Positions 7,225-53,974 of a stretch of 64,000 bases of DNA are shown in pieces. The notes beneath the pieces are model-generated. The model saw only the letters and a list, made by a program, of their open reading frames with translations, had not been told where the DNA came from and searched no databases. Position 1 is the first letter of the stretch. Each line of letters starts with the position of its first letter. The translations under genes were made by a program, and so were the position numbers. Origin of the DNA: Botryllus schlosseri (lineage: Eukaryota); assembly GCA_051294905.1 (NCBI GenBank), contig CM119371.1:40550001-40614000 (forward strand), written 5' to 3'.

Positions 7225-7226
<2 letters not shown>

Positions 7227-7278: not shown

Positions 7279-7281
<3 letters not shown>

Positions 7282-29246: not shown

Positions 29247-30360
29247 TAAAATGTACTGTTCAGTACAAGCATGATCAAGCGTTGGCGAGCCGGATGACAT
29301 GATTGTCACTTTTGTACGTGGTAGAGGCTTCCGCAGTTGCTGAACGATCTGTGGATTCATTAACGCATGTTCCACAGTGTCCCGGTACACATACGAAAGA
29401 TGTGTATTTTTGTATCTTTGTATTTTCGTACCTCATGATCCAACTCAATAATTACATTCAGTAGTAAAGTGAGAAAAGACCTGAGATGTTTGTTTGCATT
29501 CAATGTGCATAAGCAATCGCTAGTTATTGCGACTTTCTTGAAAAATTTCTATCCTATACCCGGTGTATTCACGGCCAACAGCAGTGCATGCTTGTCAGCA
29601 ACGAGTTCCAGTGTGAACTACGTCATTATCGTAATACTGCGCTACTTTAACTGCATACAAAGCCCGATCGTCGAACATCAGTCGTGTCACTTGACAAGTG
29701 CAACTTCTAGTAATATTGCGTAAGTCTAGTTATCTGAAACGCGCTAATACATCTGGTGGGATGAGAAATGTGCACAAATAGACTGAGCAATGAGCATCCC
29801 AGATACTGCGAAACATCCGATACGGTGTTCCACTCGCGACACGAAATCCAATGATGCAGTCCCCGCATCTACAATGTGATTGGACCGCTTCAAACAATTG
29901 TTTCATGAACGGGATACTACAGAAAAGTGGTAAAAGAATTTTTTAACATGCTAGCTGTACATTATACAATGTACATATCATGACTTGTTCGTATTGAAGT
30001 TGCCACGTCCGAACGTCAAATCCAATGATACAATCAATTAATTTACTGTTACATTATGTACAATGACTTCAAGGCTGGACACTTTTAGACACACTAAAAA
30101 GATTGTGCTGCACTACATCCTCAATGCATTACGATGCATTGCGGTGGTGCCGTATACTTCCACAGTATGTTACTAAATGCTAATGTATTAAGTTGTGGTT
30201 TTGGCTATTTTTATGTTAGGCTACAGTAATACGACCTGCCGAAGTACTGAAATTCTACATCAAATGTACTTCAGTCTTTTCAAGAGCATACGGCATATGA
30301 AACAGCCGTATTACGTGAGTAGTGTGGGTTGAATCGTTTGTTGCAGGCCAATCAAATTTC

Positions 30361-30560
30361 GCCACGTCGCCTTAATTGCCACGCCTACATTGCCACATCA
30401 TCCACCCATTGCCGCACCTATAGCACACCCATTGCCACGTCTATAGTGCCACATCATCCATTGCCACATCATCATCGCATTGATTGCCGCATCTATACGC
30501 TGCACAGCATCAACCCGCGCGATGTCGATTGCTGCACCTATGTCACTCATTGCCACGTCA
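30361..30560. repeat. Subterminal ATTGCCAC/ATTGCCGC short repeats of element B (mirror about 52417-52616)
   Basis: Many copies of (AT)TGCCAC(G/A)TC within 250 bp of the terminus. Confidence 0.85.
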
Positions 30561-31248
30561 AAACTTACCTTAGCTAGAATCGAACCTGGTTTGGTTGGGT
30601 ATAATTTCACATCGCTCACCACCAGGCTATTGAGCAAACTAGCCGTATTGAGCTGTTTTGAGAATATAACCGCCGATTCTCTCTTAAATTCCGAGACAAC
30701 ACCTTTTTCGAGTAATAACACATAAATGTAAGACTATGTTCGTGTGTACTTATAACATCTGTGTCATCATTAATTAGTCAATGATTTTGAGGAATTCTGC
30801 GAATGCAACTTGATAATGCAGATATCGCCACCATAAATGTCTACAATGACGCGAAAGCTCACGCGCATATTGCTGAATACTATTCCAAGAAATTGACGCG
30901 TGTAAATGTGCCACGAATACAGTTGCTTACGATTCCAAAAAAGTTGCGCCACATCGACAAAGTGAATTAGAACATTCTAAATAAAGTTGCGTTTCCAAGA
31001 AAACGCCGCGCTGGCGTTACGAATTAGAATGTTTAGTTCCGACGTAAAGCAATTCGCATTCTGAAAACTTCACATTTCTATTACAAGTATTGCCATGTGC
31101 GCAGGGATGCAGGCATCGCAGGCATAAGGTAAGATCAATGTATTTTCGTGCCAATTTAAACTAAATGTAGCTATAATTTCTCGATGCAGCATTAGCTTAC
31201 GCGAATTGTGAACGCAGATTGATTTACGTTGAGATTTCTCCAATAGCT

Positions 31249-32978
31249 AACGTAATAATGAGTTCTGTGCGTGGCTATAATGTTAACCGACAATATAGCC
31301 GAAGTCGCACAAATTCGAATGTATATGCAAGTTTTCTGTTAAAGGTAGACTATCTAGGCTCGGTTATTACTCGAATCTCGCTGTGGTTATAAATTAGGCA
31401 TGCTAATGCGTTGAGTTTTAAGCTGAAACATCCTATTTCGCGCAGCCAAGAAGACTAGTACCGCAAGCAAGCCCGGAACAAGCATATAGTGACAAAGCAG
31501 ATTACGCAACACTGAAGGTGGGCTATTTCATTTCTTGACTATACTGAAAAATCGACAGCGTACCGCATATAGCTATAATTTTTCAATGCAGCAATGCACT
31601 TCGGATTAAGATATATAATATATATAGCAACGTAGATGTTTTATAGAATATATTAGATCCAATACCTATACTAAAGCCGCAAAACGCATTGGAGCATACA
31701 TGGATAATGTGCGCAGATTGAATTACACCGAGATTTCCCCTATATCGCATCATTTAAATACCTAATAACGTAATAATGAGTTCTGTGCACGGCTATAATG
31801 TTAACCGACAATATAGCCGAAGTCGCACAAATTCGAATGTATATGCAAGTTTTCTGTTAAAGGTAGACTATCTAGGCTCGGTTATTACTCGAATCTCGCT
31901 GTGGTTATAAATTAGGCATGCTAATGCGTTGAGTTTTAAGCTGAAACATCCTATTTCGCGCAGCCAAGAAGACTAGTACCGCAAGCAAGCCCGGAACAAG
32001 CATATAGTGACAAGGCAGATTACGCAACACTGAAGGTGGGCTATTTCATTTCTTGACTAATATTGAAAAATCGACAGCGTACCGCATATAGCTATAATTT
32101 TTCGATGCAGCAATGCACTTCGGATTAAGATAAATATATAGCAACGTACATGTTTTATAGAATATATTAGATCCAATACCTATACTAAAGCCGCAAAACG
32201 CATTGGAGCATACATGGATAATGGGGGCAGATTGAATTACACCGAGATTTCCCCTATATCGCATCATTTAAATACCTAATAACGTAATAATGAGTTCTGT
32301 GCACGGCTATAATGTTAACCGACAATATAGCCGAAGTCGCACAAATTCGAATGTATATGCAAGTTTTCTGTTAAAGGTAGACTATCTAGGCTCGGTTATT
32401 ACTCGAATCTCGCTGTGGTTATAAATTAGGCATGCTAATGCGTTGAGTTTTAAGCTGAAACATCCTATTTCGCGCAGCCAAGAAGACTAGTACCGCAAGC
32501 AAGCCCGGAACAAGCATATAGTGACAAGGCAGATTACGCAACACTGAAGGTGGGCTATTTCATTTCTTGAGTATACTGAAAAATCGACAGCGTACCGCAT
32601 ATAGCTATAATTTTTCAATGCAGCAATGCACTTAGGATTAAGATATATAATATATAGCAACGTAGATGTTTTATAGAATATATTAGATCCAATACCTATA
32701 CTAAAGCCGCAAAACGCATTGGAGCATACATGGATAATGGGCACAGATTGAATTACACCGAGATTTTCCCTATATCGCATCATTTAAATACCTAATAACG
32801 TAATAATGAGTTCTGTGCACGGCTATAATGTTAACCGACAATATAGCCGAAGTCGCACAAATTCGAATGTATATGCAAGTTTTCTGTTAAAGGTAGACTA
32901 TCTAGGGTCGGTTATTACTCGAATCTCGCTGTGGTTATAAATTAGGCATGCTAATGCGTTGAGTTTTAAGCTGAAACA
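31249..32978. repeat. ~516-bp tandem repeat, about 3.3 copies (left arm of B)
   Basis: AACGTAATAATGAGTTCTGTGC at 31249, 31767, 32281 and 32797. Confidence 0.95.
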
Positions 32979-33099
32979 CAAGATTGCCATACACGGAATC
33001 GCTGTTAACGATGTCTGACTGCGCCGTTTCGACGAGTAACGAATTCTCGTATTTAGTATTGATTGTGACACATAGTCAAACAGCGACAGTTTTCACAAC

Positions 33100-35885
33100 C
33101 CGGTACATACATTGAACCAACTGATGTAAGGTGATACAGACTTTAGCATAAATCTGTTTTTCGGTAGCGTAGCACGTACCTATACATAGTAAGCTTTCAT
33201 AACGGAATTATCATGCTAATAATCAAATTCCCACCCTGAATCTTGGTACGCAGTTGTAGGATAATATGAAAATGCACCATACTAAATTTCGTTCCCTATG
33301 TTAATTTACCATAAGAAAGACAATTTGACTCCTAAAGTCCGAAATACTTGTTCGCTTGAGCTAAGTCGCAGCGCTTGGAGTGGAATTTTATAGTTCTTGT
33401 AAAAAGTTGTTTGTACACAATATATGTTTAAGGTAAGTTCTACGCATTCATGATTTCGTCCGAGTTTGCATTTTAGTAGTATATACTAATTTACGATAGC
33501 GCGTTTGTAACTTGTGCAAGTACAGGAAAATCATGGTTCTTGAACCGTGCTCAATGAATAATAGAGCATTTTTTGCTATTTTTCATTGCCATAAGTCATT
33601 CTGAAATAGCAGAATTACCGTGTTAAACATTGAATTCCCACCTTGAAAGTTGGTACGCGGTTATAGGACATTATAAAAATGCACCATACCAAATCCCATC
33701 AGACATTTCATGATGGAACTACTTTAAAACTAACGCGGCTCTACATCGACTTTTTGCGTACATCTGTTTTGCGGGAGCGTATAGCACGTACCCATACATA
33801 GTCAACTTTAATAACGGAATTACCATGCATTGAATCCCAACTCTAAACTTGATACGTAGTTGTAGGGCATTATGGCTATGCACCATGCTAAATTTCATCA
33901 CACATCTAATGATGGAACACCTTTGAAACTATCGCAGTCGCATACCGACTTTTACGCATATCTGTTTTTCGTGAACATAGCATATACCCATACATAGTCA
34001 ATTTTAATAACAGAATTAGCATGCTAAACATTAAATTCTCACCTTGAACGTTGGTACGCAGTTGTAGGACATAATAACAATGCACCATACCAAATTTCGT
34101 CAGACATTTCATGATGTAACACCTTCAAAACCAACGCAGTTCTATACAGACTTTTAACTAAATCTGTTTTTCCGTAGCGTAGCACGTACCTAAACATAGT
34201 CAACTTTATTAACGGAATTACCATGTTAATATTCGACTCCCTACCTTGAAACTCGGTACGCAGTTGTAAGACATTATGACAATGCACCATGTCAAATTTT
34301 GCAAGTACTTTATCTTTACACGACGTTTTTTGTAAAATGAATACTAATTTTATTGAAAAAATAAAAAATAAAAAAGAGCGAAAAATTACATTATATCCCG
34401 GAACGCAACAAGAAAAATCGTATGAATTTGTAAACTACTTGTTCATGACATAATAATAATTCTACTTGTACACTTTTTCACATTTTATAACACTTTAAGT
34501 AATACTTAACAGTTTCAGTTTTAAATAAAAGACGGAATATAAACTAATCGAAAAATTCGGTAACCAATTTCGCGTAGGCTATGCATGCATACAAATGAGG
34601 AAAGTTACATCAACGCGTGTTAAAGTAGCTGTATCGAGTTATCGAATGATTTTCTCCTTACATCAAAACAACTAGAATGTATAACTAAATTAAAAAACGT
34701 ATCTAAATGAGCTCCAGGGCATTGTGATTATGCTGCATACCAAATTTCATCACACATTTCATGATGGAACAACTTTAAAACTAACGCAGTTCTATAGCAA
34801 CTTTTGCCTAAATCTGTTTTCGGTAGCGTGTACATATACATAGTCAGATTTAATAACAGAATTATCATGCTAATATGTGACTCCTCACCTTGAAACTTGG
34901 TACGTAGTTGTAGGACATTGTGATTATGCAGCATACCAAATTTCCTCACGCATTTAATAATGGAACAACTTTAAAACTAACGCGGTTCTACATCGACTTT
35001 TTGCGTACATCTGTTTTGCGTGGGGGCGTATAGCACGTACCTATACATAGTTAACTTTAACAACGGAATTACCATGCTTAACATTGAATCCCAACTCGAA
35101 ACTTGATACGTAGTTGTAGAACATTATGGCAATGCACCATGCTAAATTTCATCACACATCTAATGATGGAACACCTTTAAAACTAACGCAGTCGAATACC
35201 GACTTTTACGCATATCTGTTTTGCGTGAACATAGCATATACCTATACATAGTCAATTTTAATAGCAGAATTACCGTGTTAAACATTGAATTCCCACCTTG
35301 AAAGTTGGTACGCGGTTATAGGAGATTATAACAATGCACCATACCAAATCCCATCACACATTTCATGATGGAACAACTTTAAAACTAACGCGGCTCTACA
35401 TCGACTTTTTGCGTACATCTGTTTTGTGGGAGCGTATAGCACGTAGCCTACCCATACATAGCCAACTTTAATAACGGAATTACCATGCTTAACATTGAAT
35501 CCCAACTCGAAACTTGATACGTAGTTATAGGACATTATGGCAATTCACCATGCTAAATTTCATCACACATCTAATGATGGAACACCTTTGAAACTATCGC
35601 AGTCGAATACCAACTTTTACGCATATCTGTTTTTCGTGAACATAGCATATACCCATACATAGTCAATTTTAATAACAGAATTAGCATGCTAAACATTAAA
35701 TTCTCACCTTGAACGTTGATACGCGGTTGTAGGACATAATAACAATGCACCATACCAAATTTCGTCAGACATTTCATGATGTAACACCTTTAAAACTAAC
35801 GCAGTTCTATACCAACTTCGCGTGAATCTGTTTGCGGGAGCGTAGCACGTACCTATGCGTGATCAACTTTAGTGATGGAATTACA
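33100..35885. repeat. Diverged ~200-bp satellite-like array in B, split by unrelated AT-rich segments
   Basis: Motif TGCACCAT(AC/GC)(C/T)AAATTTC near 33680, 33879, 34081, 34283, 35133, 35334, 35545 and 35746. Mirrored near 38665-41450 and 47610-50395 and repeated at 42550-44830. Confidence 0.9.
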
Positions 35886-35954
35886 TATGTAATTAAGTTT
35901 CAACACTTTTACAATGATTCGTCTTGCTTCCTATAACATCCCACTCGAGAAAAT

Positions 35955-37215
35955 GCGTCGTAGGATATAGATGAAACTAGCACAACTCATCAAGACCGCT
36001 GAAAACAGTACATTTCAACATTTAGTAGCAGTAAATTTCTAGTAAAGTACAAGACGTGATGATTTCCGAGTGAGTTAAAAAGTAAGTATTGCAGGTATAG
36101 TTTACCTGAAAACCGAATACTCTGAAATAGAAGTAGATGCAGTGTAAATAGTTAATCACTTGATTAAGTTTAGTGCAAGCAGATAAAACCTATACTTGAG
36201 TAGTACAAAATGCACGAGTACTTCGATATCGCCTCCCTCCGCGTAATAAGTGTCTACGGTTTAAGACTGCTTTTACCGATACTCGTCGGTTTCAGTTTTA
36301 GATAGAATTCGGAAACCAAATAATTTCATAAACATAAGCTAATTTAATGAATTTACTCGAATGTACTATGCCGCGCTGATAAGATTAATTATAATATACT
36401 TATCATGTTACAGCGATTTTTCTAGCGTAGAAAATCTTTAAAATGTAGTAAGCAGGCCAAATGAAGATATTCGTTGAGCTGAAGAAACATAAAAAATACT
36501 CTAGACTACTTTATCGGTACTTTACAGTTACAGTTTTAGATAAAATTTGTCCCTTTCACCTATAATTACAACTCCTCGCTATCTAAACATGTTTAGAATA
36601 TATTATTTGCGATGATACGAACCCGTGAAGTACTCAAGTTGCTTTTCGTAGGATATAGATGAAACTGACAACACTCACCAAGACCAGTGATCCACTGAAA
36701 AAAGTAAATTGTAGCAGTAAAGTCCCACTAAAGTACAAGAAGTAATGATTTCCCAGTTAGTTAAAAAGTAAGTATTGAGGTATAGTTTGGTCGAAAAAGC
36801 GAAAAACTCTGAAATAGAAGTAGATGCAGTGTAAATAGGTAATCACTTCATTAAGTATAGCGCAAGCAGGCCAAACCTATACTTGAGTACTGCAAATGTA
36901 CAAGTACTTCGCTATGTTCTCCTTCCACGTAAAAAGTGACTAGGTTTTAGAGTACTTTATCGGTACTCGACAGTTTCAGTGTTAGATAAAATTTGGTAAG
37001 ACTTTAAATTTTAAAGTAGTTTGAGCTTACGTTTGTATCACCTTGACAAGTAACATTATCAGACATGAAAATGATACTATCACCGAATATAGAAGTTAAC
37101 ACGCGTCAATGTGTTTCGGAATTCACGAGAAATTGCTTACTAAGAGAAGTATATTGTTGTATACACAATAGTGGAGAGAATATTTAAAATGTAGTAAGCA
37201 GGCCGATGGATATTC
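35955..37215. repeat. Diverged ~690-750-bp direct duplication in the inner arm of B
   Basis: CGTAGGATATAGATGAAACT near 35959 and 36647; TTAAAATGTAGTAAGCAGGCC near 36438 and 37184. Confidence 0.8.
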
Positions 37216-37240
37216 GTTTAGTTGTATAGGCATAAAAAAC

Positions 37241-37308
37241 ATTCCCGCGCGCTCTTAAACAAAACACTTCCTAACCCTACCACCTAATACTAAGACGCGC
37301 GCGGGAAT
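37241..37308. other. Hairpin axis of B: GC clamp, one bulged C and a 33-nt G-free loop (37258-37290); identical copy with loop at 46204-46236
   Basis: ATTCCCGCGCGC-TCTTA [AACAAAACACTTCCTAACCCTACCACCTAATAC] TAAGA-C-GCGCGCGGGAAT; mirror sum 74549. Confidence 0.97.
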
Positions 37309-40300
37309 GTTTTTTATGCCTATACAACTAAACGAATATCCATCGGCCTGCTTACTACATTTTAAATATTCTCTCCACTATTGTGTATACAACAATATAC
37401 TTCTCTTAGTAAGCAATTTCTCGTGAATTCCGAAACACATTGACGCGTGTTAACTTCTATATTCGGTGATAGTATCATTTTCATGTCTGATAATGTTACT
37501 TGTCAAGGTGATACAAACGTAAGCTCAAACTACTTTAAAATTTAAAGTCTTACCAAATTTTATCTAACACTGAAACTGTCGAGTACCGATAAAGTACTCT
37601 AAAACCTAGTCACTTTTTACGTGGAAGGAGAACATAGCGAAGTACTTGTACATTTGCAGTACTCAAGTATAGGTTTGGCCTGCTTGCGCTATACTTAATG
37701 AAGTGATTACCTATTTACACTGCATCTACTTCTATTTCAGAGTTTTTCGCTTTTTCGACCAAACTATACCTCAATACTTACTTTTTAACTAACTGGGAAA
37801 TCATTACTTCTTGTACTTTAGTGGGACTTTACTGCTACAATTTACTTTTTTCAGTGGATCACTGGTCTTGGTGAGTGTTGTCAGTTTCATCTATATCCTA
37901 CGAAAAGCAACTTGAGTACTTCACGGGTTCGTATCATCGCAAATAATATATTCTAAACATGTTTAGATAGCGAGGAGTTGTAATTATAGGTGAAAGGGAC
38001 AAATTTTATCTAAAACTGTAACTGTAAAGTACCGATAAAGTAGTCTAGAGTATTTTTTATGTTTCTTCAGCTCAACGAATATCTTCATTTGGCCTGCTTA
38101 CTACATTTTAAAGATTTTCTACGCTAGAAAAATCGCTGTAACATGATAAGTATATTATAATTAATCTTATCAGCGCGGCATAGTACATTCGAGTAAATTC
38201 ATTAAATTAGCTTATGTTTATGAAATTATTTGGTTTCCGAATTCTATCTAAAACTGAAACCGACGAGTATCGGTAAAAGCAGTCTTAAACCGTAGACACT
38301 TATTACGCGGAGGGAGGCGATATCGAAGTACTCGTGCATTTTGTACTACTCAAGTATAGGTTTTATCTGCTTGCACTAAACTTAATCAAGTGATTAACTA
38401 TTTACACTGCATCTACTTCTATTTCAGAGTATTCGGTTTTCAGGTAAACTATACCTGCAATACTTACTTTTTAACTCACTCGGAAATCATCACGTCTTGT
38501 ACTTTACTAGAAATTTACTGCTACTAAATGTTGAAATGTACTGTTTTCAGCGGTCTTGATGAGTTGTGCTAGTTTCATCTATATCCTACGACGCATTTTC
38601 TCGAGTGGGATGTTATAGGAAGCAAGACGAATCATTGTAAAAGTGTTGAAACTTAATTACATATGTAATTCCATCACTAAAGTTGATCACGCATAGGTAC
38701 GTGCTACGCTCCCGCAAACAGATTCACGCGAAGTTGGTATAGAACTGCGTTAGTTTTAAAGGTGTTACATCATGAAATGTCTGACGAAATTTGGTATGGT
38801 GCATTGTTATTATGTCCTACAACCGCGTATCAACGTTCAAGGTGAGAATTTAATGTTTAGCATGCTAATTCTGTTATTAAAATTGACTATGTATGGGTAT
38901 ATGCTATGTTCACGAAAAACAGATATGCGTAAAAGTTGGTATTCGACTGCGATAGTTTCAAAGGTGTTCCATCATTAGATGTGTGATGAAATTTAGCATG
39001 GTGAATTGCCATAATGTCCTATAACTACGTATCAAGTTTCGAGTTGGGATTCAATGTTAAGCATGGTAATTCCGTTATTAAAGTTGGCTATGTATGGGTA
39101 GGCTACGTGCTATACGCTCCCACAAAACAGATGTACGCAAAAAGTCGATGTAGAGCCGCGTTAGTTTTAAAGTTGTTCCATCATGAAATGTGTGATGGGA
39201 TTTGGTATGGTGCATTGTTATAATCTCCTATAACCGCGTACCAACTTTCAAGGTGGGAATTCAATGTTTAACACGGTAATTCTGCTATTAAAATTGACTA
39301 TGTATAGGTATATGCTATGTTCACGCAAAACAGATATGCGTAAAAGTCGGTATTCGACTGCGTTAGTTTTAAAGGTGTTCCATCATTAGATGTGTGATGA
39401 AATTTAGCATGGTGCATTGCCATAATGTTCTACAACTACGTATCAAGTTTCGAGTTGGGATTCAATGTTAAGCATGGTAATTCCGTTGTTAAAGTTAACT
39501 ATGTATAGGTACGTGCTATACGCCCCCACGCAAAACAGATGTACGCAAAAAGTCGATGTAGAACCGCGTTAGTTTTAAAGTTGTTCCATTATTAAATGCG
39601 TGAGGAAATTTGGTATGCTGCATAATCACAATGTCCTACAACTACGTACCAAGTTTCAAGGTGAGGAGTCACATATTAGCATGATAATTCTGTTATTAAA
39701 TCTGACTATGTATATGTACACGCTACCGAAAACAGATTTAGGCAAAAGTTGCTATAGAACTGCGTTAGTTTTAAAGTTGTTCCATCATGAAATGTGTGAT
39801 GAAATTTGGTATGCAGCATAATCACAATGCCCTGGAGCTCATTTAGATACGTTTTTTAATTTAGTTATACATTCTAGTTGTTTTGATGTAAGGAGAAAAT
39901 CATTCGATAACTCGATACAGCTACTTTAACACGCGTTGATGTAACTTTCCTCATTTGTATGCATGCATAGCCTACGCGAAATTGGTTACCGAATTTTTCG
40001 ATTAGTTTATATTCCGTCTTTTATTTAAAACTGAAACTGTTAAGTATTACTTAAAGTGTTATAAAATGTGAAAAAGTGTACAAGTAGAATTATTATTATG
40101 TCATGAACAAGTAGTTTACAAATTCATACGATTTTTCTTGTTGCGTTCCGGGATATAATGTAATTTTTCGCTCTTTTTTATTTTTTATTTTTTCAATAAA
40201 ATTAGTATTCATTTTACAAAAAACGTCGTGTAAAGATAAAGTACTTGCAAAATTTGACATGGTGCAATTGTCATAATGTCTTACAACTGCGTACCGAGTT

Positions 40301-42352: not shown

Positions 42353-42452
42353 NNNNNNNNNNNNNNNNNNNNNNNNNNNNNNNNNNNNNNNNNNNNNNNN
42401 NNNNNNNNNNNNNNNNNNNNNNNNNNNNNNNNNNNNNNNNNNNNNNNNNNNN
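42353..42452. other. 100-N scaffold gap joining two overlapping contigs
   Basis: Sequence after the gap restarts at the equivalent of 33503 (offset about 8946-8950). The ~2 kb before the gap accumulates single-base indels relative to the other copies. Confidence 0.9.
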
Positions 42453-45400
42453 GTTTGTAACTTGTGCAAGTACAGGAAAATCATGGTTCTTGAACCGTGC
42501 TCAATGAATAATAGAGCATTTTTTGCTATTTTTCATTGCCATAAGTCATTCTGAAATAGCAGAATTACCGTGTTAAACATTGAATTCCACCTTGAAAGTT
42601 GGTACGCGGTTATAGGACATTATAAAAATGCACCATACCAAATCCCATCAGACATTTCATGATGGAACTACTTTAAAACTAACGCGGCTCTACATCGACT
42701 TTTTGCGTACATCTGTTTGCGGGAGCGTATAGCACGTACCCATACATAGTCAACTTTAATAACGGAATTACCATGCATTGAATCCCAACTCTAAACTTGA
42801 TACGTAGTTGTAGGGCATTATGGCTATGCACCATGCTAAATTTCATCACACATCTAATGATGGAACACCTTTGAAACTATCGCAGTCGCATACCGACTTT
42901 TACGCATATCTGTTTTTCGTGAACATAGCATATACCCATACATAGTCAATTTTAATAACAGAATTAGCATGCTAAACATTAAATTCTCACCTTGAACGTT
43001 GGTACGCAGTTGTAGGACATAATAACAATGCACCATACCAAATTTCGTCAGACATTTCATGATGTAACACCTTCAAAACCAACGCAGTTCTATACAGACT
43101 TTTAACTAAATCTGTTTTTCCGTAGCGTAGCACGTACCTAAACATAGTCAACTTTATTAACGGAATTACCATGTTAATATTCGACTCCCTACCTTGAAAC
43201 TCGGTACGCAGTTGTAAGACATTATGACAATGCACCATGTCAAATTTTGCAAGTACTTTATCTTTACACGACGTTTTTTGTAAAATGAATACTAATTTTA
43301 TTGAAAAAATAAAAAATAAAAAGAGCGAAAAATTACATTATATCCCGGAACGCAACAAGAAAAATCGTATGAATTTGTAAACTACTTGTTCATGACATAA
43401 TAATAATTCTACTTGTACACTTTTTCACATTTTATAACACTTTAAGTAATACTTAACAGTTTCAGTTTAAATAAAAGACGGAATATAAACTAATCGAAAA
43501 ATTCGGTAACCAATTTCGCGTAGGCTATGCATGCATACAAATGAGGAAAGTTACATCAACGCGTGTTAAAGTAGCTGTATCGAGTTATCGAATGATTTTC
43601 TCCTTACATCAAAACAACTAGAATGTATAACTAAATTAAAAAACGTATCTAAATGAGCTCCAGGGCATTGTGATTATGCTGCATACCAAATTTCATCACA
43701 CATTTCATGATGGAACAACTTTAAAACTAACGCAGTTCTATAGCAACTTTTGCCTAAATCTGTTTTCGGTAGCGTGTACATATACATAGTCAGATTTAAT
43801 AACAGAATTATCATGCTAATATGTGACTCCTCACCTTGAAACTTGGTACGTAGTTGTAGGACATTGTGATTATGCAGCATACCAAATTTCCTCACGCATT
43901 TAATAATGGAACAACTTTAAAACTAACGCGGTTCTACATCGACTTTTTGCGTACATCTGTTTTGCGTGGGGGCGTATAGCACGTACCTATACATAGTTAA
44001 CTTTAACAACGGAATTACCATGCTTAACATTGAATCCCAACTCGAAACTTGATACGTAGTTGTAGAACATTATGGCAATGCACCATGCTAAATTTCATCA
44101 CACATCTAATGATGGAACACCTTTAAAACTAACGCAGTCGAATACCGACTTTTACGCATATCTGTTTTGCGTGAACATAGCATATACCTATACATAGTCA
44201 ATTTTAATAGCAGAATTACCGTGTTAAACATTGAATTCCCACCTTGAAAGTTGGTACGCGGTTATAGGAGATTATAACAATGCACCATACCAAATCCCAT
44301 CACACATTTCATGATGGAACAACTTTAAAACTAACGCGGCTCTACATCGACTTTTTGCGTACATCTGTTTTGTGGGAGCGTATAGCACGTAGCCTACCCA
44401 TACATAGCCAACTTTAATAACGGAATTACCATGCTTAACATTGAATCCCAACTCGAAACTTGATACGTAGTTATAGGACATTATGGCAATTCACCATGCT
44501 AAATTTCATCACACATCTAATGATGGAACACCTTTGAAACTATCGCAGTCGAATACCAACTTTTACGCATATCTGTTTTTCGTGAACATAGCATATACCC
44601 ATACATAGTCAATTTTAATAACAGAATTAGCATGCTAAACATTAAATTCTCACCTTGAACGTTGATACGCGGTTGTAGGACATAATAACAATGCACCATA
44701 CCAAATTTCGTCAGACATTTCATGATGTAACACCTTTAAAACTAACGCAGTTCTATACCAACTTCGCGTGAATCTGTTTGCGGGAGCGTAGCACGTACCT
44801 ATGCGTGATCAACTTTAGTGATGGAATTACATATGTAATTAAGTTTCAACACTTTTACAATGATTCGTCTTGCTTCCTATAACATCCCACTCGAGAAAAT
44901 GCGTCGTAGGATATAGATGAAACTAGCACAACTCATCAAGACCGCTGAAAACAGTACATTTCAACATTTAGTAGCAGTAAATTTCTAGTAAAGTACAAGA
45001 CGTGATGATTTCCGAGTGAGTTAAAAAGTAAGTATTGCAGGTATAGTTTACCTGAAAACCGAATACTCTGAAATAGAAGTAGATGCAGTGTAAATAGTTA
45101 ATCACTTGATTAAGTTTAGTGCAAGCAGATAAAACCTATACTTGAGTAGTACAAAATGCACGAGTACTTCGATATCGCCTCCCTCCGCGTAATAAGTGTC
45201 TACGGTTTAAGACTGCTTTTACCGATACTCGTCGGTTTCAGTTTTAGATAGAATTCGGAAACCAAATAATTTCATAAACATAAGCTAATTTAATGAATTT
45301 ACTCGAATGTACTATGCCGCGCTGATAAGATTAATTATAATATACTTATCATGTTACAGCGATTTTTCTAGCGTAGAAAATCTTTAAAATGTAGTAAGCA

Positions 45401-48400
45401 GGCCAAATGAAGATATTCGTTGAGCTGAAGAAACATAAAAAATACTCTAGACTACTTTATCGGTACTTTACAGTTACAGTTTTAGATAAAATTTGTCCCT
45501 TTCACCTATAATTACAACTCCTCGCTATCTAAACATGTTTAGAATATATTATTTGCGATGATACGAACCCGTGAAGTACTCAAGTTGCTTTTCGTAGGAT
45601 ATAGATGAAACTGACAACACTCACCAAGACCAGTGATCCACTGAAAAAAGTAAATTGTAGCAGTAAAGTCCCACTAAAGTACAAGAAGTAATGATTTCCC
45701 AGTTAGTTAAAAAGTAAGTATTGAGGTATAGTTTGGTCGAAAAAGCGAAAAACTCTGAAATAGAAGTAGATGCAGTGTAAATAGGTAATCACTTCATTAA
45801 GTATAGCGCAAGCAGGCCAAACCTATACTTGAGTACTGCAAATGTACAAGTACTTCGCTATGTTCTCCTTCCACGTAAAAAGTGACTAGGTTTTAGAGTA
45901 CTTTATCGGTACTCGACAGTTTCAGTGTTAGATAAAATTTGGTAAGACTTTAAATTTTAAAGTAGTTTGAGCTTACGTTTGTATCACCTTGACAAGTAAC
46001 ATTATCAGACATGAAAATGATACTATCACCGAATATAGAAGTTAACACGCGTCAATGTGTTTCGGAATTCACGAGAAATTGCTTACTAAGAGAAGTATAT
46101 TGTTGTATACACAATAGTGGAGAGAATATTTAAAATGTAGTAAGCAGGCCGATGGATATTCGTTTAGTTGTATAGGCATAAAAAACATTCCCGCGCGCTC
46201 TTAAACAAAACACTTCCTAACCCTACCACCTAATACTAAGACGCGCGCGGGAATGTTTTTTATGCCTATACAACTAAACGAATATCCATCGGCCTGCTTA
46301 CTACATTTTAAATATTCTCTCCACTATTGTGTATACAACAATATACTTCTCTTAGTAAGCAATTTCTCGTGAATTCCGAAACACATTGACGCGTGTTAAC
46401 TTCTATATTCGGTGATAGTATCATTTTCATGTCTGATAATGTTACTTGTCAAGGTGATACAAACGTAAGCTCAAACTACTTTAAAATTTAAAGTCTTACC
46501 AAATTTTATCTAACACTGAAACTGTCGAGTACCGATAAAGTACTCTAAAACCTAGTCACTTTTTACGTGGAAGGAGAACATAGCGAAGTACTTGTACATT
46601 TGCAGTACTCAAGTATAGGTTTGGCCTGCTTGCGCTATACTTAATGAAGTGATTACCTATTTACACTGCATCTACTTCTATTTCAGAGTTTTTCGCTTTT
46701 TCGACCAAACTATACCTCAATACTTACTTTTTAACTAACTGGGAAATCATTACTTCTTGTACTTTAGTGGGACTTTACTGCTACAATTTACTTTTTTCAG
46801 TGGATCACTGGTCTTGGTGAGTGTTGTCAGTTTCATCTATATCCTACGAAAAGCAACTTGAGTACTTCACGGGTTCGTATCATCGCAAATAATATATTCT
46901 AAACATGTTTAGATAGCGAGGAGTTGTAATTATAGGTGAAAGGGACAAATTTTATCTAAAACTGTAACTGTAAAGTACCGATAAAGTAGTCTAGAGTATT
47001 TTTTATGTTTCTTCAGCTCAACGAATATCTTCATTTGGCCTGCTTACTACATTTTAAAGATTTTCTACGCTAGAAAAATCGCTGTAACATGATAAGTATA
47101 TTATAATTAATCTTATCAGCGCGGCATAGTACATTCGAGTAAATTCATTAAATTAGCTTATGTTTATGAAATTATTTGGTTTCCGAATTCTATCTAAAAC
47201 TGAAACCGACGAGTATCGGTAAAAGCAGTCTTAAACCGTAGACACTTATTACGCGGAGGGAGGCGATATCGAAGTACTCGTGCATTTTGTACTACTCAAG
47301 TATAGGTTTTATCTGCTTGCACTAAACTTAATCAAGTGATTAACTATTTACACTGCATCTACTTCTATTTCAGAGTATTCGGTTTTCAGGTAAACTATAC
47401 CTGCAATACTTACTTTTTAACTCACTCGGAAATCATCACGTCTTGTACTTTACTAGAAATTTACTGCTACTAAATGTTGAAATGTACTGTTTTCAGCGGT
47501 CTTGATGAGTTGTGCTAGTTTCATCTATATCCTACGACGCATTTTCTCGAGTGGGATGTTATAGGAAGCAAGACGAATCATTGTAAAAGTGTTGAAACTT
47601 AATTACATATGTAATTCCATCACTAAAGTTGATCACGCATAGGTACGTGCTACGCTCCCGCAAACAGATTCACGCGAAGTTGGTATAGAACTGCGTTAGT
47701 TTTAAAGGTGTTACATCATGAAATGTCTGACGAAATTTGGTATGGTGCATTGTTATTATGTCCTACAACCGCGTATCAACGTTCAAGGTGAGAATTTAAT
47801 GTTTAGCATGCTAATTCTGTTATTAAAATTGACTATGTATGGGTATATGCTATGTTCACGAAAAACAGATATGCGTAAAAGTTGGTATTCGACTGCGATA
47901 GTTTCAAAGGTGTTCCATCATTAGATGTGTGATGAAATTTAGCATGGTGAATTGCCATAATGTCCTATAACTACGTATCAAGTTTCGAGTTGGGATTCAA
48001 TGTTAAGCATGGTAATTCCGTTATTAAAGTTGGCTATGTATGGGTAGGCTACGTGCTATACGCTCCCACAAAACAGATGTACGCAAAAAGTCGATGTAGA
48101 GCCGCGTTAGTTTTAAAGTTGTTCCATCATGAAATGTGTGATGGGATTTGGTATGGTGCATTGTTATAATCTCCTATAACCGCGTACCAACTTTCAAGGT
48201 GGGAATTCAATGTTTAACACGGTAATTCTGCTATTAAAATTGACTATGTATAGGTATATGCTATGTTCACGCAAAACAGATATGCGTAAAAGTCGGTATT
48301 CGACTGCGTTAGTTTTAAAGGTGTTCCATCATTAGATGTGTGATGAAATTTAGCATGGTGCATTGCCATAATGTTCTACAACTACGTATCAAGTTTCGAG

Positions 48401-50516
48401 TTGGGATTCAATGTTAAGCATGGTAATTCCGTTGTTAAAGTTAACTATGTATAGGTACGTGCTATACGCCCCCACGCAAAACAGATGTACGCAAAAAGTC
48501 GATGTAGAACCGCGTTAGTTTTAAAGTTGTTCCATTATTAAATGCGTGAGGAAATTTGGTATGCTGCATAATCACAATGTCCTACAACTACGTACCAAGT
48601 TTCAAGGTGAGGAGTCACATATTAGCATGATAATTCTGTTATTAAATCTGACTATGTATATGTACACGCTACCGAAAACAGATTTAGGCAAAAGTTGCTA
48701 TAGAACTGCGTTAGTTTTAAAGTTGTTCCATCATGAAATGTGTGATGAAATTTGGTATGCAGCATAATCACAATGCCCTGGAGCTCATTTAGATACGTTT
48801 TTTAATTTAGTTATACATTCTAGTTGTTTTGATGTAAGGAGAAAATCATTCGATAACTCGATACAGCTACTTTAACACGCGTTGATGTAACTTTCCTCAT
48901 TTGTATGCATGCATAGCCTACGCGAAATTGGTTACCGAATTTTTCGATTAGTTTATATTCCGTCTTTTATTTAAAACTGAAACTGTTAAGTATTACTTAA
49001 AGTGTTATAAAATGTGAAAAAGTGTACAAGTAGAATTATTATTATGTCATGAACAAGTAGTTTACAAATTCATACGATTTTTCTTGTTGCGTTCCGGGAT
49101 ATAATGTAATTTTTCGCTCTTTTTTATTTTTTATTTTTTCAATAAAATTAGTATTCATTTTACAAAAAACGTCGTGTAAAGATAAAGTACTTGCAAAATT
49201 TGACATGGTGCATTGTCATAATGTCTTACAACTGCGTACCGAGTTTCAAGGTAGGGAGTCGAATATTAACATGGTAATTCCGTTAATAAAGTTGACTATG
49301 TTTAGGTACGTGCTACGCTACGGAAAAACAGATTTAGTTAAAAGTCTGTATAGAACTGCGTTGGTTTTGAAGGTGTTACATCATGAAATGTCTGACGAAA
49401 TTTGGTATGGTGCATTGTTATTATGTCCTACAACTGCGTACCAACGTTCAAGGTGAGAATTTAATGTTTAGCATGCTAATTCTGTTATTAAAATTGACTA
49501 TGTATGGGTATATGCTATGTTCACGAAAAACAGATATGCGTAAAAGTCGGTATGCGACTGCGATAGTTTCAAAGGTGTTCCATCATTAGATGTGTGATGA
49601 AATTTAGCATGGTGCATAGCCATAATGCCCTACAACTACGTATCAAGTTTAGAGTTGGGATTCAATGCATGGTAATTCCGTTATTAAAGTTGACTATGTA
49701 TGGGTACGTGCTATACGCTCCCGCAAAACAGATGTACGCAAAAAGTCGATGTAGAGCCGCGTTAGTTTTAAAGTAGTTCCATCATGAAATGTCTGATGGG
49801 ATTTGGTATGGTGCATTTTTATAATGTCCTATAACCGCGTACCAACTTTCAAGGTGGGAATTCAATGTTTAACACGGTAATTCTGCTATTTCAGAATGAC
49901 TTATGGCAATGAAAAATAGCAAAAAATGCTCTATTATTCATTGAGCACGGTTCAAGAACCATGATTTTCCTGTACTTGCACAAGTTACAAACGCGCTATC
50001 GTAAATTAGTATATACTACTAAAATGCAAACTCGGACGAAATCATGAATGCGTAGAACTTACCTTAAACATATATTGTGTACAAACAACTTTTTACAAGA
50101 ACTATAAAATTCCACTCCAAGCGCTGCGACTTAGCTCAAGCGAACAAGTATTTCGGACTTTAGGAGTCAAATTGTCTTTCTTATGGTAAATTAACATAGG
50201 GAACGAAATTTAGTATGGTGCATTTTCATATTATCCTACAACTGCGTACCAAGATTCAGGGTGGGAATTTGATTATTAGCATGATAATTCCGTTATGAAA
50301 GCTTACTATGTATAGGTACGTGCTACGCTACCGAAAAACAGATTTATGCTAAAGTCTGTATCACCTTACATCAGTTGGTTCAATGTATGTACCGGGTTGT
50401 GAAAACTGTCGCTGTTTGACTATGTGTCACAATCAATACTAAATACGAGAATTCGTTACTCGTCGAAACGGCGCAGTCAGACATCGTTAACAGCGATTCC
50501 GTGTATGGCAATCTTG

Positions 50517-51728
50517 TGTTTCAGCTTAAAACTCAACGCATTAGCATGCCTAATTTATAACCACAGCGAGATTCGAGTAATAACCGACCCTAGATAGTCT
50601 ACCTTTAACAGAAAACTTGCATATACATTCGAATTTGTGCGACTTCGGCTATATTGTCGGTTAACATTATAGCCGTGCACAGAACTCATTATTACGTTAT
50701 TAGGTATTTAAATGATGCGATATAGGGAAAATCTCGGTGTAATTCAATCTGTGCCCATTATCCATGTATGCTCCAATGCGTTTTGCGGCTTTAGTATAGG
50801 TATTGGATCTAATATATTCTATAAAACATCTACGTTGCTATATATTATATATCTTAATCCTAAGTGCATTGCTGCATTGAAAAATTATAGCTATATGCGG
50901 TACGCTGTCGATTTTTCAGTATACTCAAGAAATGAAATAGCCCACCTTCAGTGTTGCGTAATCTGCCTTGTCACTATATGCTTGTTCCGGGCTTGCTTGC
51001 GGTACTAGTCTTCTTGGCTGCGCGAAATAGGATGTTTCAGCTTAAAACTCAACGCATTAGCATGCCTAATTTATAACCACAGCGAGATTCGAGTAATAAC
51101 CGAGCCTAGATAGTCTACCTTTAACAGAAAACTTGCATATACATTCGAATTTGTGCGACTTCGGCTATATTGTCGGTTAACATTATAGCCGTGCACAGAA
51201 CTCATTATTACGTTATTAGGTATTTAAATGATGCGATATAGGGGAAATCTCGGTGTAATTCAATCTGCCCCCATTATCCATGTATGCTCCAATGCGTTTT
51301 GCGGCTTTAGTATAGGTATTGGATCTAATATATTCTATAAAACATGTACGTTGCTATATATTTATCTTAATCCGAAGTGCATTGCTGCATCGAAAAATTA
51401 TAGCTATATGCGGTACGCTGTCGATTTTTCAATATTAGTCAAGAAATGAAATAGCCCACCTTCAGTGTTGCGTAATCTGCCTTGTCACTATATGCTTGTT
51501 CCGGGCTTGCTTGCGGTACTAGTCTTCTTGGCTGCGCGAAATAGGATGTTTCAGCTTAAAACTCAACGCATTAGCATGCCTAATTTATAACCACAGCGAG
51601 ATTCGAGTAATAACCGAGCCTAGATAGTCTACCTTTAACAGAAAACTTGCATATACATTCGAATTTGTGCGACTTCGGCTATATTGTCGGTTAACATTAT
51701 AGCCACGCACAGAACTCATTATTACGTT
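50517..51728. repeat. ~516-bp tandem repeat, about 2.3 copies (right arm of B)
   Basis: The mirror coordinate sum shifts from 83495 to 82977 (518 bp) across the array. Confidence 0.93.
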
Positions 51729-53974
51729 AGCTATTGGAGAAATCTCAACGTAAATCAATCTGCGTTCACAATTCGCGTAAGCTAATGCTGCATCGAGAAA
51801 TTATAGCTACATTTAGTTTAAATTGGCACGAAAATACATTGATCTTACCTTATGCCTGCGATGCCTGCATCCCTGCGCACATGGCAATACTTGTAATAGA
51901 AATGTGAAGTTTTCAGAATGCGAATTGCTTTACGTCGGAACTAAACATTCTAATTCGTAACGCCAGCGCGGCGTTTTCTTGGAAACGCAACTTTATTTAG
52001 AATGTTCTAATTCACTTTGTCGATGTGGCGCAACTTTTTTGGAATCGTAAGCAACTGTATTCGTGGCACATTTACACGCGTCAATTTCTTGGAATAGTAT
52101 TCAGCAATATGCGCGTGAGCTTTCGCGTCATTGTAGACATTTATGGTGGCGATATCTGCATTATCAAGTTGCATTCGCAGAATTCCTCAAAATCATTGAC
52201 TAATTAATGATGACACAGATGTTATAAGTACACACGAACATAGTCTTACATTTATGTGTTATTACTCGAAAAAGGTGTTGTCTCGGAATTTAAGAGAGAA
52301 TCGGCGGTTATATTCTCAAAACAGCTCAATACGGCTAGTTTGCTCAATAGCCTGGTGGTGAGCGATGTGAAATTATACCCAACCAAACCAGGTTCGATTC
52401 TAGCTAAGGTAAGTTTTGACGTGGCAATGAGTGACATAGGTGCAGCAATCGACATCGCGCGGGTTGATGCTGTGCAGCGTATAGATGCGGCAATCAATGC
52501 GATGATGATGTGGCAATGGATGATGTGGCACTATAGACGTGGCAATGGGTGTGCTATAGGTGCGGCAATGGGTGGATGATGTGGCAATGTAGGCGTGGCA
52601 ATTAAGGCGACGTGGCGAAATTTGATTGGCCTGCAACAAACGATTCAACCCACACTACTTACGTGGTTAAAACTTCCATTTATAATCCATAAATAATCGA
52701 AATTATTTTCGTTGCTGTTGGCCGTGGGTTGCCATAGCCTGGGGACAAAATCAGCCGCTTCCCTCCCATTTTTAACTCGTACATTGTAAGTCCAGACGTG
52801 CCACTACAACTCATCAGAGTTGGAGGAAAGCTACAATTCGATAATATGAATATATTTTTGAATATAGGAACATCACAAATATAACTAAACTATATTCACT
52901 AATTCTACAATTTCCCATAAAGCTCTGTGGCCAACTCTGACCCAGCAGTGAGCCATGGCCCACCCTTTGAGAACCCCTGGTCAAGTATTTACATAGTTTG
53001 CGATGTTTTCAGAGCGTAATCACATGTTTAACATTACCGTTGCATATTACGGATTCCGAATCACTGTACATTCTCCGCTGCAAACTTTCGATTTGCGACA
53101 TAAATAATTTGCAACACCATCAACCCACCCACTTCCACGTAAAACCTTCCGAAATCAACGGAAAAAAAATAAACCATATCGCTCGTTGATTAACGCAGGC
53201 GTATGTTTTGTTGACTTACTTCGTAGTGGGGATGGTGTGAACCTCTGAACCGTTCAAGTTCGTGTGAACCCGAACCTTTCTGAAAGGTTCTGTGTGAACG
53301 CGAACGTGAACCTCGTGACGTGACGTGACGTGACGTATTATTGCTAATTCTAACCCCACATTTCATTGAAGAGATAGCCTATATTAATGTTCACGAAACC
53401 TAGCGAATACTCGGACCACATATTGCTACAATGCTGAAATAGATATTGACATTTTAAACGTCGCCAAATGTATCAAGTGAGGCAATCAGATGATATAATA
53501 ATCCCGTAAAATCAATATCTTTGGTCGCTTTGCCAACAATTCCGACGAGGACTTGCAAGGGATAAGTTATACAGCATTAGCCAACACCCTAATCGCACGG
53601 ATTTGGTTTTCATGATACAATAAACATATGCTGGTGAAGTCATATTTTGTGATACGATTGTTGATATACAATGTTCTTTCCAATTCTCTACTAGTTGCTG
53701 ACGATTACCCCTGACGAGTGTCAGCCGAAAATATTCGGGTTCATTTCAATATGAATATACTATTCAATTGTACTATGTGTAGATAAAATATAAATACCCC
53801 AATTGTACGCATACAGACAACGAATCTACCTAAGACACGCCAGGATCGTTTTTTATAAGCACATCACTGAAATAATTAAAAATGGGCTGGCCAATCTGAA
53901 ATCTCACTCGTGATCCAAATTATGTCAATCCCGTTGCAGCTATCTCGCTGTGATATTAAGTATTTACCTTGGAT

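Follow-up and report, generated by a model that had tools for sequence, protein, structure and literature searches.

The window analysed here, a 64,000-nt stretch of the Botryllus schlosseri genome, contains an element that is most likely one palindrome of 6,935 + 44 + 6,417 nt, about 13.4 kb. Its left arm (30318..37252, + strand) is non-coding, starts with AGTAGT and is 100% complementary to the right arm bar one 518-bp unit; the right arm (46243..52659, − strand), delimited by its complementarity to the left, has ACTACT as its last letters. Complete complementarity extends over 1,229 nt and 5,487 nt, and the difference in arm length equals a single unit of a tandem array, so that the arms measure 6,935 and 6,417 nt, in line with the 6.4-6.9 kb given in a preliminary description of the locus. 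By self-comparison this array (31248..32978, +) holds about 3.3 units of 518 bp, with one unit fewer in the right arm, and 31248-32462 matches 31766-32978 directly at 97.8%. It falls within a segment (30434..32978, +), consisting of TIR-homologous DNA and the repeat array, that is common to the 'left' end of gene-bearing Maverick-like elements (86.6-91.6% identity). Further in, Tandem Repeats Finder reports two arrays of a 202-bp repeat (33605-34299 and 34736-35871, +; period 202, 3.5 and 5.6 copies), followed by a unique, AT-rich inner arm (35872..37252, +; 34% G+C), the part that is best conserved when copies are compared. The non-palindromic centre of 44 nt (37253..37296, +) lacks ungapped complementarity. 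DNA folding predicts an unpaired loop of 33 nt at 37258-37290, the loop size already proposed, with a 1-nt bulge at 37296 and the GC-rich sequences CCCGCGCGC and GCGCGCGGG on either side of the loop. A search with blastn found no similarity between this element and Element A of the same window, which has a 921-nt loop.

The element is gene-less. Its longest stop-to-stop frame is 131 aa, none of the six frames searched reached a Pfam cut-off, the inner arm (35872..37252) has only frames of 53-55 aa, and in the arm no RNA family reached its gathering score and no tRNA was found. The only protein similarity to the coding relatives described below comes from spurious frames within the shared non-coding end. 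Because the Maverick/Polinton core genes (protein-primed PolB, rve integrase, packaging ATPase, protease, and major and minor capsid proteins) are absent from it, the element can be classified only as a non-autonomous derivative.

A centre written twice

As assembled, the interval 30312-52665 holds two copies of the centre in identical orientation, at 37253-37296 and 46199-46242. The left contig ends in a first writing of the inner 5.06 kb of the right arm (37297..42352, −), redundant with 46243-51267; next comes a 100-N scaffold gap (42353..42452), whose two neighbouring contigs overlap; and the right contig starts with a second writing of 3.75 kb of inner left arm, followed by the centre (42453..46242, +), redundant with 33503-37296. 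Over 8,850 aligned nt, 33503-42351 equals 42453-51267 with 0 mismatches and 32 gap openings. Since the same DNA is represented twice across the gap, the true element is about 13.4 kb and not 22.3 kb. The preliminary description of a complete hairpin over 30312..52665 is therefore right in its outer junctions and its palindrome, while its 22.3-kb span is inflated by the twice-written middle. The same layout recurs at a second locus, L030, with N at 2167-2266 and a 100% direct overlap of 1,022 nt on either side. Among the matches listed there are at least seven close pairs of centres in the same orientation, and 100 N lie between the centres in both of the pairs examined. We conclude that the doubled centre and the gap are most likely an artefact of assembly or scaffolding, which leaves the outer junctions and a single centre as genuine features. 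A structure truly doubled behind the 100 N could still exist, because no single molecule covering flank, arm, loop, arm and flank was seen among the reads, unitigs and contigs examined.

An integration into an older repeat

On the left, ...CCGTAT is followed by TACGTG (30312-30317) and then by AGTAGTGTGGG from 30318; on the right, CCCACACTACT ends at 52659 and is followed by TACGTG (52660-52665) and GTTAAAAC. Inverted symmetry thus ends at AGTAGT/ACTACT, and the next 6 bp agree at six of six positions as a direct repeat and at only four of six as an inverted one, exactly the arrangement previously noted just outside both arms. The sequences beyond are unlike each other on the two sides, and both belong to an older repeat, the target of the insertion. 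The left flank (29882..30311) is part of this dispersed host repeat, as judged from the many matching copies of left-flank positions 453-888 (73-80% identity) and from adjacency in paralogues; the right flank (52666..52985) is the rest of it, as paralogue comparison shows. The preliminary description had tied its reading to the two flanks being neighbours somewhere, and they adjoin directly in all four paralogous copies of the host repeat that were fetched. One of these, L033, is a diverged paralogous empty site (74-83% identity) with a single TACTTG between the adjacent flanks. This 6-mer, at the place matching 30312..30317, identifies the left TACGTG as a target-site duplication; its right counterpart (52660..52665) is identified from the reading of the junction together with the same empty site.

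Two unitigs from the source sample, the best holder (X1 record 5 and X2 record 28), carry flank plus 28 nt of the element, short of the 31 letters required for bridging. In another individual, the match of a 121-nt contig (X15 record 14) ends at 30317, the last base of the duplication, with 39 unlike letters beyond; this contig is a candidate, though not a proven, empty allele.

These junctions bear on whether the palindrome exists in the chromosome at all. One might suspect an assembly or sequencing artefact, either a fold-back chimeric read or a mis-join, given the 100-N gap and the 8.85-kb redundant overlap inside the interval, the same doubled centre at seven or more loci, and the lack of a whole-element read among those examined. 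But a chimera would mirror the flank as well, and the actual flanks differ; they adjoin in 4/4 paralogues, and L033 has the target only once. Moreover, three other copies are complete, gap-free palindromes, each with its own 6-bp duplication, and a centre of the same sequence recurs 104 times in the genome, which leaves only the doubling as artefactual. We regard an artefactual palindrome as extremely improbable. The original proposal of an integrated palindrome with an integrase-type signature, and not a fold-back chimera, is borne out by the unlike flanks, by the three gap-free palindromes and by the rve integrase of the coding relatives.

A dispersed family whose arms evolve in concert

A genome search with the 44-nt centre at up to 3 mismatches gave 104 occurrences (55 forward and 49 reverse, 53 of them exact) spread over at least 16 chromosome-scale contigs, against 0 for a control with the reversed pattern. 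A 400-nt query around the centre matched at full length, with 98-100% identity, at all 40 places scored. Three copies are free of gaps: C7 (15,361 nt), C14 (15,157 nt) and C9 (15,976 nt) are whole palindromes, each 99.5-99.9% self-complementary, and palindromic elements range from 13.4 to 16.0 kb.

All six family members examined, four palindromic and two coding, have a perfect 6-bp direct repeat outside their ends, with a different sequence in each, a regularity that chance is far from explaining. In the palindromic elements these are TACGTG (studied element), GTTATA (C7), AATGTG (C14) and CATTTG (C9), read in 4 of roughly 97 palindromic copies; in the coding elements they are GTCGAT (C4) and CCTGTT (C9b). 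The ends AGTAGT...ACTACT are found in the studied element, C7, C9, C4 and C9b, and in C14 the left end shows a single AGT and the right end two repeats.

A local inverted duplication of a solo Maverick end by host break repair, which would not have transposed as a palindrome, might also produce such a structure, and short GC-rich inverted repeats separated by a 33-nt spacer are a classic substrate for fold-back repair. One would not expect such local events to leave the same centre 104 times across at least 16 chromosome-scale contigs, nor both termini and a private 6-bp duplication in each copy examined. We therefore consider this origin highly unlikely for the insertion studied here; an event of the host-repair type may instead lie behind the family's single origin.

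Within each copy, the two arms evolve together. Of 102 sites that vary between copies, 96 show the difference mirrored on both arms; counted as ungapped columns, and on both arms of every copy, they comprise 45 of 50 within the inner 1,300 nt plus 51 of 52 within the outer 560 nt. Arm-to-arm identity within copies is 99.5-100%, a value that polishing in the long-read assembly may have sharpened in part, and identity between copies is 91-99%. Measured by substitutions, copies are 96.5-99.1% identical to one another in the inner 1,300 nt versus 91.3-96.8% in the outer 560 nt. These data qualify an earlier suggestion that such arms should be unstable and the insertion hence recent. Arms identical bar one unit agree with recency, as does the contig from another individual that stops matching at the end of the duplication, but the presence of about 100 such centres in the genome speaks against simple instability, and homogenisation of arms can also give arm identity.

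Gene-bearing Maverick-like relatives

The outer 2.66 kb of the arm matches one ('left') end of coding elements of about 15 kb at 87-92% identity. Specifically, arm positions 117-2661 match 236-2862 of C4 (86.6-91.6%), and arm positions 118-1534 match 321-1747 of C9b (89.8%). The terminal 600 nt are 97% identical to C8:25651428-25652021, and an integrase gene lies 10 kb inside that copy. C4 and C9b have the same (AGT)2 ends and their own 6-bp duplications; the coding element is 14.9 kb long, and the TIRs of the coding relatives are about 600-650 bp. Pfam matches in the coding elements are rve (E 2e-14), Chromo (3e-8), Pox_A32 (8e-9), Bcl-2 (9e-22) and BIR (4e-17), and both the integrase and the A32-type ATPase exceed Pfam cut-offs. 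A double-jelly-roll capsid protein is probable, given an Atlas lead and a weak match to DJR-like_dom (E 0.01; 15.5 bits, the cut-off being 27). The genome holds 35 full-length open copies of the integrase (96-100% identity), at least 14 of which lie 7-14 kb inside a match to the terminus, always in the same geometry.

No protein-primed polymerase gene is present in either of the two coding relatives read end to end, and no protease was recognised in the coding relatives. The 40 or more open copies of PolB are those of a different Maverick family, the integrase of which shares only 52-53% identity. A polymerase-based origin or replication of the palindrome would thus need help from that family. 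In the inner 4.27 kb of the arm, nothing resembles the coding elements at the nucleotide or protein level, and the same holds for the 202-bp arrays within 33605..35871. As only the outer 2.66 of 6.9 kb is shared, a dimer of one Maverick end accounts for less than half of the arm.

Discussion

Our data make it very probable that 30318-52659 represents a single insertion of a derivative of Maverick/Polinton-type virus-like transposons that is palindromic throughout, lacks genes and is non-autonomous; the (AGT)2 ends, the 6-bp duplications and the 2.66 kb shared with coding elements link it to that group. Mavericks are defined by the end motif (AGT)2//(ACT)2 or (AG)3//(CT)3 and a 6-bp target duplication, with lengths of 12.7-24.6 kb (PMC8097293). 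The studied element has this end motif, a perfect 6-bp duplication, terminal inverted repeats and a length within the published range, and it has 2.66 kb in common with elements whose genes include those for an rve-chromo integrase, an A32-type ATPase and, probably, a DJR capsid protein. It differs from known Mavericks, Polintons and other polintoviruses or adintovirus-like elements in being gene-less with a centre of only 44 nt, and in that the inverted repeat is the whole element, with arms of 6.4-6.9 kb where published TIRs measure 46-1,447 bp. The two coding relatives read end to end also depart from that pattern, with no recognisable protein-primed polymerase or protease.

Foldback transposons such as Drosophila FB and Galileo offer another precedent. 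They, too, have little or no central DNA, and their non-coding copies are mobilised in trans, as is proposed here, and tend to break assemblies, as the palindromes do; target duplications measure 9 bp in FB and 7 bp in Galileo, and master copies carry a transposase of the P or another superfamily. The element could thus be an ordinary foldback transposon of this kind, moved by its own cut-and-paste transposase and unrelated to Mavericks, with the coding elements having merely acquired, or being flanked by, its ends. Very long inverted arms that consist mostly of tandem sub-repeats around a tiny centre, together with the lack of genes, are classical foldback anatomy, and both the unrelated inner 4.27 kb of the arm and the missing polymerase gene of the coding relatives fit as well. 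Yet the (AGT)2//(ACT)2 ends with 6-bp duplications are the published signature of Mavericks (PMC8097293), and the coding elements share both the motif and the duplication size, with FB or Galileo duplication lengths in none of the six elements. The only recombinase found between such ends is the rve integrase, a retroviral-type enzyme inside virus-like elements. No transposase frame was found in the four palindromic copies, where the longest frame is 219 aa (in C9, left out of the search) and the others are at most 142 aa. We therefore judge a foldback transposon of this sort improbable.

Under the preferred reading of a Maverick/Polinton-type derivative, how might a gene-less palindrome spread and keep its arms alike? 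We propose that the integrase of the coding relatives acts in trans by recognising the shared ends. The palindrome probably arose once, by inverted duplication of one element end, whether through fold-back priming at the short GC-rich inverted repeat beside the loop or through strand switching by a replicating polymerase, and has probably spread as a unit since. Arm identity could be renewed through arm-to-arm conversion or during propagation, the latter by a snap-back/copy-back intermediate that has one arm copied from the other, or by repair of a folded single strand. The lengths of the palindromes (13.4-16.0 kb), close to that of the 14.9-kb coding element, suggest a constraint on packaging size, and such a match would be the behaviour expected of a helper's satellite or defective genome.

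Defective genomes of this kind have viral parallels. Snap-back defective viral genomes are symmetric palindromes of one genome end and depend on a helper (PMC13506859), and AAV snapback genomes have been described (PMC8235507). Adenovirus light particles carry left-end DNA, with packaging repeats just inside the left ITR (PMC5033970), and the studied element retains what may be an analogous region, a TIR with an adjacent repeat array. Snap-back genomes are transient products of infection; our palindromes, in contrast, sit in the germ line as insertions with target duplications, and their roughly 100 copies form diverging lineages. A more ambitious model, possible but in our view doubtful, treats the palindromes as satellites of a Maverick virus, snap-back defective genomes that have become integrated and heritable: of strand-switch or fold-back origin, reduced to cis functions, matched in size to the capsid and remade from a single arm each round. 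The cis signals retained would then be the end motif, the TIR and the adjacent repeat array, possibly a packaging domain, and substitutions would be mirrored because the palindrome is re-made from one arm per round of replication. Our literature searches found no published description of palindromic Maverick-ended elements.

Fragility is to be expected of perfect palindromes of 6-8 kb whose loop measures 33 nt, and here they have repeatedly broken the long-read assembly. The doubled centres that result (at least seven, with 100 N joining both of those examined) inflate repeat content and create false structures.

Mavericks and Polintons are regarded as viruses that can also exist as transposons. 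To our knowledge, their replication and packaging have hardly ever been observed. A gene-less palindrome that keeps one Maverick end, numbers about 100 copies in this subfamily alone and still integrates with the Maverick signature, its arms staying identical while lineages diverge, shows which cis sequences suffice for mobilisation. It also raises the questions of whether there is a fold-back or copy-back intermediate and whether the passenger is limited by capsid size. If the palindromes prove to be satellites, they would be a natural record of Maverick replication and DNA packaging, and a candidate agent of interference with, or silencing of, their helper.

Results

At the left junction of Element B, the gene-less palindromic insertion with Maverick-type ends, the flank closes with CCGTAT and is followed by TACGTG (30312-30317) and by AGTAGTGTGGGTTGAATCG from 30318. 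At the right junction CGATTCAACCCACACTACT runs to 52659 and is followed by a second TACGTG (52660-52665) and then by GTTAAAAC. The inverted symmetry ends at AGTAGT/ACTACT, the six bases outside the ends match as a direct repeat at 6 of 6 positions and as an inverted repeat at 4 of 6, and beyond the duplication the DNA on the two sides is unrelated. On both sides the sequence reads exactly as in a preliminary description of this locus, which took Element B for a complete hairpin integrated with a TACGTG target duplication and not for a fold-back chimera. The arms measure 6,935 and 6,417 nt, and their complementarity is 100% along two stretches, one of 1,229 nt (30313-31541 with 51436-52664) and one of 5,487 nt (31766-37252 with 46243-51729); their sole difference is one unit of a 518-bp tandem repeat. 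At the centre lie 44 nt without ungapped complementarity (37253-37296), which fold as single-stranded DNA into a 33-nt loop (37258-37290) with a one-base bulge, at -47.4 kcal/mol as against -8.95 ± 2.3 for 200 shuffles; both the complementarity and the fold bear out the earlier proposal of 6.4-6.9-kb arms and a 33-nt loop. Within the loop lies CCTAACCCTA, a ten-base piece of the metazoan telomere repeat, an observation made post hoc.

Element B belongs to a family of whole-element palindromes. A search of the genome (495.5 Mb, 219 contigs) with the terminal 600 nt reported 71 matches and scored 40 of its 712 first-look candidates, and the three gap-free copies that we read end to end are complete palindromes: C7 (15,361 nt, target duplication GTTATA), C14 (15,157 nt, AATGTG; G000:C14:17379400-17395300, L023+L024) and C9 (15,976 nt, CATTTG). 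C7 and C9 start with AGTAGT and end with ACTACT; C14 has one AGT at its left end and two ACT at its right, a difference in terminal trinucleotide number of the kind that slide-back/jump-back initiation, a concept taken from PMC8097293, would be expected to produce. The centres of all three copies are that of Element B, in either orientation, with zero to two changes. Across the genome the 44-nt centre has 104 matches at three or fewer mismatches (55 forward, 49 reverse, 53 exact), compared with 0 for a reversed-pattern control, and allowing for doubled loci we estimate that roughly 97 elements carry it. Because this common centre is non-palindromic, we conclude that the palindrome had a single origin and that its later spread was in palindromic form.

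The preliminary description placed the hairpin at 30312..52665, an interval that contains 100 N (42353-42452). The left contig covers the flank, the left arm and the centre (37253-37296) and then turns back down the right arm for 5.06 kb, ending at 42352 within the 518-bp array. The right contig opens at 42453, where the left-arm 518-bp array has its inner edge, passes through a second centre (46199-46242) in the same orientation as the first, and continues along the right arm into the flank. The alignment of window 33503-42351 with 42453-51267 covers 8,850 nt and has 0 mismatches and 32 gap openings, from which it follows that the contigs overlap and that the scaffolder put a gap between them instead of merging them. 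Judged from this alignment, Element B most likely consists of one palindrome, 6,935 + 44 + 6,417 = 13,396 nt long, and its 22.3-kb appearance is an effect of assembly. This is a strong inference and not proof, because no one molecule has been seen to span the whole locus. The palindromic insertion of the preliminary description is real, and its 22.3-kb extent is inflated by redundant contig overlap. The same arrangement recurs: among the 100 centre matches listed of the 104, at least 7 pairs lie within 11 kb of each other in the same orientation, with spacings of 5.8-10.4 kb (for example G000:C3:4215494/4221273, C5:24804995/24811817, C11:23472129/23479513, C13:14011232/14021617, C5:21060388/21067248 and C5:26379981/26388215). 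A second such pair that we fetched (L030) has a 100-N run between its centres, and the 1,022 nt to each side of that run overlap directly at 100%, so that a 100-N scaffold gap separates overlapping contigs in 2 of the 2 close pairs examined. On these two, mis-scaffolding at the palindromes is systematic, with several kb duplicated each time.

Both flanks of Element B are parts of an older dispersed repeat, and the left and right flank sequences adjoin in all four paralogous copies fetched (L033-L036), three of which are 73-74% identical to the left flank. In L033 the two flank alignments overlap by exactly six bases and the sequence reads ...gccgtat TACTTG gtt..., the hexamer being present once there and twice in the window. 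The flanks are contiguous elsewhere and both contigs come from one locus, as the preliminary description expected of an integrated element; Element B is a true insertion. Positions 1-393 of the left flank (window 29430-30317) continue in positions 319-574 of the right flank (window 52666-53259) in other copies, for example at C1:39729883-39730621 and C4:24275917-24276688, and left positions 453-888 continue in right positions 7-326. The flanks are thus nested older repeats, and Element B therefore sits in a repeat that is itself inside another repeat.

The four runs of read data consist entirely of contigs, and for this reason we give no weight to depth, coverage holes or the missing bridging contig. 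In the best holder sample, unitigs (X1 record 5, X2 record 28) hold the flank and 28 nt of the element, a junction crossing shorter than the 31-letter rule for bridging. X15, from a different sample with the same organism label, has a 121-nt contig (record 14, depth 56 like its neighbours) that matches 30236-30317 and continues with 39 letters not on Element B. Its break falls directly after the last base of the duplication, placed as in a candidate empty allele, and adds a little to the case for insertion; the contigs of a further run, X16, stop short of the junction. Separately, contig word depth at window 28818-29321 exceeds that of the single-copy flank by four to five orders of magnitude in X1/X2 and X15, which represent the two samples of real depth at this place, and about 14- to 277-fold in X16; this points to a very high-copy repeat immediately upstream of the Element B locus.

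Other inverted repeats lie in the same window. Element A, a second giant palindrome at 1-7549 that runs off the window start, has arms at 1-3309 and 4231-7549 that are 99.5% complementary and a 921-nt loop with an open frame of 107 aa (3807-4127, + strand). Element A and the arm of Element B have no blastn similarity, and the 107-aa frame has no match in Element B. A smaller inverted repeat (62194-62579/63310-63695) has arms of 386 nt, 95% complementary and 730 nt apart.

Two gene-bearing relatives share the ends of Element B: C4 (20,655 nt, duplication GTCGAT; G000:C4:15485300-15506300, L027-L029) and C9b (14,949 nt, duplication CCTGTT; G000:C9:10199500-10214900, L031+L032). Both run from AGTAGT to ACTACT between 6-bp duplications of their own, and (AGT)2//(ACT)2 with perfect 6-bp duplications is the Maverick signature in PMC8097293, where intact Mavericks are 12,723-24,620 bp long and have TIRs of 46-1,447 bp. 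The TIRs of C4 and C9b are only ~600-650 bp. The two are collinear except that C4 has a 5.4-kb insert between 395-bp direct repeats of 99.5% identity (L027 6070-6464, L028 1081-1475), probably a nested LTR-type element. They encode an integrase of 339 aa (Pfam rve E 2e-14, Chromo E 3e-8), an A32-type packaging ATPase of 205 aa (Pfam E 8e-9), a Bcl-2 homologue of 181 aa (E 9e-22), an IAP-type BIR protein of 211 aa (E 4e-17) and a probable capsid protein of 425 aa, whose match to DJR-like_dom is weak and below cut-off (E 0.01). The nearest Atlas clusters of this 425-aa frame have a DJR-like domain in 15-24% of members, which may serve as a lead only for the capsid reading. Frames of 125, 245 and 299 aa matched no family in Pfam (E up to 5) or in a PDB sequence search (best E 0.76); the 245- and 299-aa frames look by eye like mutual paralogues, and for the unnamed frames Atlas returned only unnamed clusters containing Preplasmiviricota. 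Positions 117-2661 of the Element B arm are 87-92% identical to the left ends of C4 and C9b, including the 518-bp array inside the TIR, and neither blastn (7-nt words) nor tblastn matched the inner 4.27 kb of the arm to the coding elements. Of 119 scored matches to the 339-aa integrase, 35 are full-length open copies at 96-100% identity, and at least 14 of the 35 sit 7-14 kb inward from a terminus match among the 40 scored, with constant geometry.

Element B itself is without genes. In the arm no stop-to-stop frame exceeds 131 aa, none of six frames of at least 80 aa reached the Pfam cut-off, a tRNA scan found none (likewise in C9b), and no Rfam family reached its gathering score on arm plus centre. 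The one Rfam match, a sub-threshold one to a miRNA precursor at the hairpin (36 bits, gathering score 100), we take to be a trivial consequence of the palindrome. Tandem arrays of 518-bp and 202-bp units make up ~3.6 kb of the 6.9-kb arm, and unique, AT-rich DNA fills its inner part.

Neither coding copy has a protein-primed polymerase frame or a recognisable protease. A scan of the whole genome with PF03175 gave no hit, and neither did its control. A protein-primed PolB is found elsewhere in the genome (L038:2726-5200 = G000:C1:30843525-30845999, PF03175 E 1.4e-7), in dozens of open copies of 1,200-1,300 aa at 94-98% identity (55 of 309 candidates scored). These copies adjoin a different integrase family, only 52-53% identical to the 339-aa integrase, and PolB belongs to a different Maverick family than C4 and C9b. 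The family of C4 and C9b looks like a young, polymerase-less, Maverick-like one. Because PolB accompanies a different integrase family, these elements may depend on another Maverick for replication, or they may do without extrachromosomal replication.

We aligned both arms of the four palindromic copies and counted variable ungapped columns. Both arms of every copy have the same base in 45 of 50 variable columns of the inner 1,300 nt and in 51 of 52 of the outer 560 nt. Within a copy the arms have 99.5-100% substitution identity, as against 91.3-99.1% between copies. Lineage-specific changes are therefore shared by both arms. There are two explanations: propagation copies one arm anew from the other, or homogenisation takes place within the chromosome, by folded-strand repair or arm-to-arm conversion; our data do not separate the two. 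The first would be a snap-back or copy-back step, and the GC-rich CCCGCGCGC/GCGCGCGGG pair beside the loop could serve it as a natural fold-back primer.

Discussion

Element B is a real feature. In behaviour it resembles a foldback transposon and in appearance a snap-back defective genome, and its membership signals come from Mavericks/Polintons; because it lacks genes, we file it only as a non-autonomous Maverick/Polinton derivative. Full-text literature searches, mostly judged by their listings, returned no description of a fully palindromic Maverick/Polinton derivative, and a full-text search returned no literature on template switching to palindromes in protein-primed, terminal-protein replication. 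We propose that one founding inverted duplication would have joined one element end and adjacent non-coding DNA to its mirror image, that the rve integrase of the coding relatives would integrate the product in trans, and that the palindrome would have spread as a non-autonomous unit.

Adenovirus incomplete particles and the in vitro amplification of phi29 also include palindromic dimers of one end. The palindromes measure 13.4, 15.2, 15.4 and 16.0 kb, as against 14.9 kb for the putative helper, and where Element B keeps its TIR and the adjacent repeat array, adenoviruses have packaging repeats, according to PMC5033970. Snap-back defective genomes, as described in PMC13506859 and PMC8235507, would be the analogue. 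More speculatively, given their helper-like lengths and the retained TIR and repeat segment, we suggest by analogy that these palindromic elements may be packaged satellites.
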